From IMG/VR virus record IMGVR_UViG_2563366825_000011, positions 1 to 64,000 of that record: a stretch of 64,000 nucleotides of DNA; one strand, written 5' to 3'. The stretch comes from a virus. Its lineage: Duplodnaviria; Heunggongvirae; Uroviricota; Caudoviricetes. This document shows positions 53,497 to 54,171 of this stretch, one piece after another; the stretch's first letter is position 1; each line of letters opens with the position of its first letter. The notes under the pieces were generated by a model, which was not told where the DNA came from, did no database searches, and saw only the letters and a program-made list of their open reading frames with translations. A program made the translations under genes and the position numbers.

Positions 53497-54021
53497 CTAC
53501 CTCAGATCACCTAATAATATATCAAGATTATTTTGCGCATTAATGCTATTCGCCATTACTGTTGCTGCTTCTGGCAACTTTCCAAGAGCAATAAATATAT
53601 TCTTAAGGCTGATTGGAATTGATGAACCATGCGGATCGCGCCACTCACCGCAAATTCTGTGAGTTTCATCACAAAGCCTGAACGCATCCCAACCTCCATA
53701 TTGACCAAAAATTATGTCCATTGACTCTATTTCTGCGGGCGATAACTCCCCCAGCTCATCAACAGAAGAAAATGTACGCCACATTTCAACCTTATGATCC
53801 GCTACATCAGATATCCATGATTCCCACGGACTGTACTCGTTTTCACTTCCATCCTTAACCAAAGAATATGTCTGCGATAAAACGGGTCCTTTGTTCATAG
53901 AGAAATAATGATCACCACTAATGGGAAAACCATACAACTCCATTGCTTTGCGGTCAGAGAGATACATCAGCTTAATGAAACGCATAGATCCGCCATGTTT
54001 TTTCAGCAAATACGCTGCCAT
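53497..54021 (-). CDS. Panacea-domain (DUF4065, GepA/SocA-like) protein; candidate antitoxin or anti-defence adaptor
   Basis: 174-aa MAAYLLKKHGGSMRFIKLMYLSDRKAMELYGFPISGDHYFSMNKGPVLSQTY...; pattern resembles phage-associated GepA proteins as recalled. Confidence 0.6.
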   Translation of the reverse strand: MAAYLLKKHGGSMRFIKLMYLSDRKAMELYGFPISGDHYFSMNKGPVLSQTYSLVKDGSENEYSPWESWISDVADHKVEMWRTFSSVDELGELSPAEIESMDIIFGQYGGWDAFRLCDETHRICGEWRDPHGSSIPISLKNIFIALGKLPEAATVMANSINAQNNLDILLGDLR

Positions 54022-54171
54022 TTACGCAACTTTTTCTTCATTAAACATAAATCGGCTCTCTGTCTCACATGAAATACTCTTTCTGACTATATGTTAATAG
54101 CTCCGGTTATTACAGGTTAATGTGTGTTTATTTCTTAATCAGCCCCGCACTTCCGTACGGGGCCATTTCTG

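Follow-up and report, generated by a model that had tools for sequence, protein, structure and literature searches.

About half of all Panacea-domain proteins are encoded in two-gene loci, in which the antitoxin gene usually comes first (Kurata et al., PMC8832971). Pairs of PanA antitoxins with MazF-like toxins have been validated and direct complexes of PanA with its toxin have been reported (Kurata et al., PMC8832971), and the pairs with MazF/PemK-like PanT proteins include, for example, those of Pseudomonas moraviensis and Bifidobacterium ruminantium (Kurata et al. 2022, PMC8832971). A short GPV motif is reported to be critical for neutralisation by PanA (PMC8832971). The antitoxin SocA serves as a ClpXP adaptor for SocB, whereas proteases are dispensable for other PanA proteins (Kurata et al., PMC8832971). 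Antitoxin genes that stand alone are of more than one kind. A population survey of Klebsiella pneumoniae found orphan antitoxins from degrading toxin-antitoxin (TA) loci to be common (PMC7192599), while T4 Dmd and the anti-DarTG1 enzyme of T4-like phages are encoded by intact, conserved genes of demonstrated function (PMC11825919).

Here we describe panA, a Panacea-domain gene found in a 64-kb stretch of DNA (hereafter the window) between an insertion sequence and a giant gene. The reading that we prefer, at a probability of roughly 0.85, is that panA is the antitoxin relic of a PanA-PanT module whose toxin gene has already been deleted, and that nothing special links it to the giant gene.

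Results

The window is E. coli DNA, and from about 48.4 kb onwards it represents the right arm of a lambdoid prophage integrated just after ynfF. At 48341-48430, comparison with four sister loci (L001-L004) indicates that the prophage lies immediately after ynfF and leaves 84 nt from the 5′ end of ynfG, the next 4Fe-4S gene; strain EC2 carries a second element, equipped with an integrase, that also splits ynfE. The genes that surround panA are as follows.

50230..52085, plus strand: ibrA-ibrB module (PAPS-reductase-like and ParB-like), convergent with panA, recognised by Pfam, NCBIfam and the RefSeq and GenBank annotation of L001 and L009
52110..53424, plus strand: IS1414 (IS256 family), a simple insertion in the spacer between ibrB and panA
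53497..54021, minus strand: present panA ORF, 174 aa with an ATG start, encoding a Panacea-domain protein (PanA)
54172..62556, minus strand: giant gene for a polyvalent protein of 2794 aa, with LPD5, LPD1, MuF_C and LPD38 (Pfam) and a phrog_616 assignment

The panA ORF matches the Pfam family PF13274 SocA_Panacea (formerly DUF4065) with 70.7 bits against a cut-off of 25.7 (E 2.5e-19), covering residues 16-127 of the protein and positions 2-112 of the 113 in the profile. It also matches phrog_1281 (E 2e-38), and the identical gene is labelled 'Panacea domain-containing protein' in RefSeq. The GPV motif is kept as G45-P46-V47; in an alignment of 40 sequences, G45 and P46 are invariant and V47 is nearly so. 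AlphaFold2 gives a confident fold for the window protein (pLDDT 90.5). About 80 homologues, mostly of 180-190 aa, were collected by tblastn of phage genomes and by protein search of a large collection. NCBIfam and PADLOC returned no match for the Panacea protein, and a sequence search of the PDB with PanA gave chance-level matches only. Since Foldseek with the confident PanA model likewise found nothing in the PDB at E <= 0.001, there is no solved relative by which the lesions described below could be judged.

A preliminary description of this DNA had noted a Panacea-domain gene directly downstream of the giant ORF, to be checked with the DUF4065 profile, and had named IS1414 and the 2794-aa gene, 150 bp away on the same strand, as its only neighbours, with no small toxin ORF beside it. 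These observations hold, the profile match being well above its curated threshold. The range it gave for the gene, 53497-54171, extends past the ORF (53497-54021) into non-coding spacer: on the minus strand the 150 bp between panA and the giant gene contain stops in all three frames. No toxin-sized ORF lies between panA and either neighbour, the giant gene or IS1414. Four small overlapping or antisense ORFs (45-58 aa) were considered as hidden toxins and rejected, as none matched a Pfam or PHROG family. The only 'terminator' called in a scan of 53380-54400 was a weak 5-bp stem within the start region of panA, and it was disregarded.

In related loci, panA has a partner. The preliminary description had named a conventional small toxin gene at this position in homologous loci as what would refute it, and a gene of this kind is indeed present: of 14 loci with a homologue, 12, reaching down to about 40% identity, have immediately after panA a gene for about 135 aa (phrog_19071, here called panT), with a spacing that ranges from a 4-bp overlap to a gap of about 50 nt. 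In Yersinia phage YeP2, Klebsiella phage ST13-OXA48phi12.5 and E. coli phage Lys8385Vzw, panA is followed by a gene for 135-139 aa that overlaps it by 4 bp or lies 3 nt apart, and the three downstream proteins are homologous to one another. Three further copies, each unannotated and directly downstream of panA, were found by tblastn (E 1e-20 to 1e-90).

1501-1881: panT in Pseudomonas phage Sirocco (L007)
6537-6938: panT in the E. coli P2-like prophage of GCA_018047185.1 (L010)
6555-6956: panT in Mixta GCA_014946725.1 (L011)

The P2-like prophage L010 is the closest intact relative, with 69% PanA identity. In Sirocco, an opposite-strand ORF of 44 aa is annotated in place of panT. The same arrangement, with panT directly downstream of panA, was seen in three metagenome contigs, and by hmmsearch (E 7e-40 to 6e-16) in Erwinia, a soil contig and one further contig. 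The partner was absent only in a pair of loci from Fibrobacter, the most distant homologue examined (34% identity). Because of this conserved pairing, together with the validated PanA pairs (PMC8832971), we regard bicistronic panA-panT as the canonical state of the subfamily. One pair, at 2501-3432 of L017 (Logan SRR11678221 contig), sits inside a type I restriction-modification locus, between its hsdR and hsdS/NucS-like genes, and fits a defence-island setting for intact members.

Three other PHROG families, phrog_3658, phrog_28947 and phrog_1925, match only PanA residues 1-28 or 1-18, or PanT residues 92-127. They seem to derive from pieces of decayed panA-panT that are annotated as genes in Stx-type and related phages, of which Shigella phages 75/02 Stx and POCJ13 are examples.

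The structural model of PanT resembles the toxins Kid, MazF and CcdB, whose superfamily has an SH3-like barrel fold, at moderate confidence (pLDDT 68), and phrog_19071 is probably a MazF/Kid-like toxin family. At the level of sequence, neither three phage members nor 13 database members of PanT matched Pfam even at E up to 10, models of PemK/MazF or CcdB found no match in phrog_19071, and the family profile matched no sequence in the PDB. From the fold prediction, and by analogy with the validated PanAT systems (PMC8832971), we infer that PanT would act as a toxin and that PanA would bind it.

In the window, where a toxin gene would be expected within about 100 nt as in other panA-panT modules, only a six-codon stub of panT is present.

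53474..53491, minus strand: panT stub, the first six codons ATGATGTTCAGCCCTTAT (MMFSPY), 5 nt past the panA stop
53434..53473, unstranded: sequence past the junction, linking the panT stub to the ibrB 3′ flank

Past the stub, its frame crosses unrelated sequence and meets a stop at about 53444. DNA alignment shows 17 of the 18 bases of the stub to be identical to the start of a panT remnant in O157:H7 prophages, which has ATGATGTTCACCCCTTAT where the window has ATGATGTTCAGCCCTTAT and runs on as MMFTPYRRGT, and the homology ends exactly at the sixth codon. The Pro-Tyr of the stub corresponds to residues 7-8 of the PanT family, which are invariant. No other similarity to PanT was found by tblastn in the 64-kb window, and none in sister loci that lack the insertion sequence. 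The 53434..53473 segment is unrelated to the O157 panT remnant and is identical in two of those sister loci (L001 and L002). The alignment thus indicates that all of panT except six codons has been removed, by a deletion or a recombination that fused the stub with the 3′ flank of ibrB.

The ibrA product is a PAPS-reductase/DUF3440 protein with weak similarity to BrxP and DndC, and that of ibrB is ParB-like. Both genes lie at the prophage end, preceded by antirepressor genes, and take the place of the TraR/DUF4752/Ea22 block of the O157 and O104 prophages. They were considered as partners of panA and rejected, being convergent with it, absent from the O157 and O104 contexts, and located beyond the deletion junction.

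Sister prophages have lost other parts of the same module. In O157:H7 prophages (L003), panA has lost residues ~28-150 through an internal deletion, and a second deletion affects panT; N- and C-terminal pieces of panT are kept, and the C-terminal piece, which includes IRIADGTIQAHDDIDEEFFQPVLDGFLISKYTPFDIL, aligns with the PanT C-terminus (E 3.6e-4). In O104:H4-type prophages (L004), the first 40 or so codons are all that is left of panA, and unrelated sequence is fused to them. The window, O157 and O104 types each keep parts that the others have lost, which makes them products of independent decay from a single ancestral module. By sequence comparison, an intact module would have stood downstream of the giant gene and decayed by three independent routes, the ancestral state being rebuilt from three differently decayed versions and from relatives at no more than 69% identity. 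When the O157 remnant was used as a query against complete E. coli genomes, a search that also returned many matches to a short repeat at query positions 35-88, only remnant forms of this lineage were seen beside the giant gene among the matches listed.

The antitoxin gene of the window is itself damaged at two positions.

54022..54048, minus strand: ancestral 5′ end of panA, with ATG at 54048..54046, eight codons (MFNEEKVA) and TAA at 54024..54022
53965..53973, minus strand: remaining copy of a 9-bp repeat, AAGCTGATG (Lys-Leu-Met), from the DNA alignment

Upstream of the present ATG, the panA frame reads ATG TTT AAT GAA GAA AAA GTT GCG TAA ATG. Because the frame runs on in this way, as MFNEEKVA followed by TAA, the 174-aa ORF is what an N-terminal truncation has left of a longer ancestral gene. 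The lesion is a nonsense mutation, CAA to TAA, at ancestral codon 9 (Gln), and the present ATG abuts it (UAAAUG). Translations and DNA alignment show that CAA is kept in the O157, O104 and P2-like copies (L003, L004 and L010), and that TAA is common to the window, strains EC2 and S1-KEN-04-A, and phage PhiR5_2. The N-terminal motif MFxExKxAQ(MAAYLL) is present in nearly all of 68 homologues. The other lesion is the loss of a second copy of AAGCTGATG, which removed 9 bp in frame and three residues, and shortened the conserved motif KLMKL(L/M)YLSDR to KLMYLSDR. This gap is seen in the window only, that is in one of 69 aligned family members, and it sits at the start of a helix predicted for residues 16-30 in the AlphaFold2 model. 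The window protein thus departs from the full-length form of the subfamily, with its N-terminal MFxExKxAQ and uninterrupted KLxKLLYL helix.

Further erosion of the same allele can be found in protein databases: one derivative (P0003, 148 aa) is without the GPV segment, and another (P0014, 101 aa) ends after residue ~101, where it is fused to other sequence. Between the window allele and those of S1-KEN-04-A (L002) and PhiR5_2 (L009), there are four non-synonymous and 0-1 synonymous differences. This pattern is compatible with relaxed constraint; the differences are too few for a test, and the pattern has almost no statistical power because the 18 genomes that bear panA are 99-100% identical.

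These observations can be put together as follows. The ancestral module would have been a type II PanA-PanT system, a cargo element in the right end of a lambdoid prophage beside ynfF. As in intact relatives, panA (~185 aa) would have been translationally coupled to a panT gene of about 135 aa with a predicted MazF/Kid/CcdB-like fold, and PanA would have neutralised PanT by direct binding, as other PanA proteins do. Such a module may have acted as prophage addiction or abortive-infection cargo. A deletion or recombination then removed panT save for six codons and joined the stub to ibrAB, and the toxin-less panA is now decaying, with the nonsense codon at position 9 and the three-residue deletion in its most conserved helix motif. 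IS1414 landed later in the spacer and removed nothing. To our knowledge, TA modules can decay safely only if the toxin goes first. The order seen here is the same, a missing toxin beside an antitoxin that has started to erode. The present panA ORF is presumably functionless or nearly so.

Three features speak against regarding panA as a relic, namely that the ORF is open over 174 codons, that GPV is kept, and that the predicted fold is confident. The first two favour another explanation, in which an orphan PanA has been kept because it is useful alone: translated by re-initiation at UAAAUG, it would work in trans, for anti-addiction or counter-defence, against MazF-like PanT toxins of other prophages or of host abortive-infection modules. 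The orphan gene is also present in an isolated phage, PhiR5_2; orphan antitoxins with such roles have been discussed or documented (PMC7192599, PMC11825919), and PanA can evolve to neutralise non-cognate toxins (PMC8832971). Possible targets circulate as well, since 208 complete E. coli genomes carry the Lys8385Vzw-type pair, 206 of them with the two genes together. However, the PanA of this common E. coli pair shares only 35% identity with that of the window, which makes cross-neutralisation doubtful, and the panT DNA of the closer relative L010 matches no complete E. coli genome. Moreover, the two lesions affect the most conserved parts of PanA and one of them is unique in the family, broken variants of the allele exist, and panA has been lost in most sister prophages without loss of the giant gene or of the prophage. 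No sigma-70-like promoter site was found in the spacer by a scan of 53380-54400. We therefore consider a useful orphan antitoxin unlikely. Among the 60 listed of the 208 genomes with the Lys8385Vzw-type pair, none is one of the 18 with orphan panA. The stop-start UAAAUG could permit re-initiation and hence a functional shortened PanA, judging from the sequence, and it is distinctly improbable that a protein made in this way is kept by the prophage as a stand-alone neutraliser of PanT acting in trans. If it were, a Panacea-domain counter-defence or anti-addiction gene would stand beside a presumed anti-defence polyvalent protein.

It had also been suggested that panA is functionally tied to the giant protein, either as an antitoxin or immunity factor for a toxic domain of it or as its chaperone. 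The sole support is that the giant gene ends 150 bp upstream of panA on the same strand, and several observations run against both versions. The 3′ end of the giant gene (last 1.2 kb) is present in 426 of 5426 complete E. coli genomes, compared with 18 of 5426 for the full panA ORF, and where panA has been destroyed, in O157:H7 and O104:H4 prophages, the giant gene is still annotated at full length. None of the 14 homologous panA loci adjoins a giant gene. The only Pfam domains of the giant protein are LPD5, LPD1, MuF_C and LPD38, none of them a recognised toxin domain. In addition, a strong hairpin parts the two genes.

54141..54164, minus strand: hairpin past the stop of the giant gene, with a 10-bp stem, a GGAA loop and no U tract

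This hairpin is present in both the MFE and the centroid RNA folds, and the terminator scan made no call there; it is probably the 3′ end or a stabiliser of the giant-gene transcript, forming a boundary to panA. Its stem is perfect only on the minus-strand transcript and is conserved in O157 and O104 prophages. Given the co-occurrence counts, neither the toxin-partner nor the chaperone proposal for the giant protein holds up, and a functional tie of either kind is very improbable. As to the giant protein itself, its C-terminal part matches a 'DarB-like antirestriction' PHROG (E 8e-28), and its residues 1 to ~1050 contain no Pfam domain.

Finally, IS1414 occupies the exact place expected for a downstream toxin gene, but that its insertion took the toxin gene out can practically be dismissed, since loci with an empty site (L001, L002 and L009) are already toxin-less with the same stub. 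The element carries an IS256-family transposase gene at 52182..53390 on the plus strand (NCBIfam E 8e-128), and we take it to be IS1414 from its embedded astA/EAST1 ORF. It is flanked by a direct target duplication of 8-9 bp, TGGAGCCG(G), at 52102-52110 and 53425-53433, and its flanks rejoin exactly to the empty site of L001. Because of this intact duplication and exact empty-site match, IS1414 removed nothing. The IS-free loci of strains EC2 and S1-KEN-04-A (L001 and L002) and of phage PhiR5_2 (L009) have an identical stub and junction, with the panA stop and the convergent ibrB stop 88 bp apart, and the toxin was therefore lost before IS1414 arrived. Inspection of these loci for a native neighbour thus gave the same toxin-less arrangement as the window. 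Of the earlier suggestion that the partner was lost when IS1414 inserted, the loss stands and IS1414 as its cause does not.

A second copy of IS1414, at 24375-25690 on the minus strand, is 100% identical to the first, in inverted orientation and about 26 kb from it. Each copy contains a 38-aa ORF for the astA/EAST1 enterotoxin (~52897-53013 on the plus strand and ~24786-24902 on the minus strand). The inverted identical copies could drive inversion of the segment between them.

Discussion

The apparent puzzle of a Panacea antitoxin with a giant or missing partner dissolves into ordinary toxin-first decay of a TA module. This has little import beyond annotation, although three decay routes of one module are documented across E. 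coli prophages. Two points bear on annotation. The conserved partner of this PanA subfamily is phrog_19071, an uncharacterised family whose genes are often left out of annotations, and the 'Panacea domain-containing protein' calls of RefSeq for this lineage lack the N-terminus, their ORFs starting only after a nonsense codon.

Among described systems, the locus is most like PanA-PanT (PMC8832971). It shares the Panacea domain with its GPV motif and the prophage or mobile-element setting, and in its relatives the antitoxin comes first, the genes overlap or abut, and the small partner has a predicted MazF/Kid-like fold. It differs from the described pairs in that the window toxin is reduced to six codons and the antitoxin is damaged, and in that phrog_19071, the family of the partner, does not match PemK/MazF at the level of sequence. 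With SocA-SocB of Caulobacter crescentus, the type VI system from which the Pfam name derives, the likeness is the same Pfam domain in the antitoxin; nothing at the panA locus suggests a SocB-like partner, and phrog_19071 is without a Pfam match.

T4 Dmd and the anti-DarTG1 enzyme of T4-like phages (PMC11825919) resemble the window panA in being phage antitoxin homologues without a cognate toxin. Unlike those genes, panA is interrupted by a nonsense mutation, carries a deletion unique among the aligned family members, and has disappeared from most sister prophages. The orphans of the K. pneumoniae survey (PMC7192599) are a closer parallel, since there, too, the antitoxin outlives the toxin in its original upstream context and remnants of the pair are found in sister genomes. 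There is no difference of substance from those cases, to which the window adds three readable decay routes. Thus, panA is an ordinary, degraded member of the known PanAT system.
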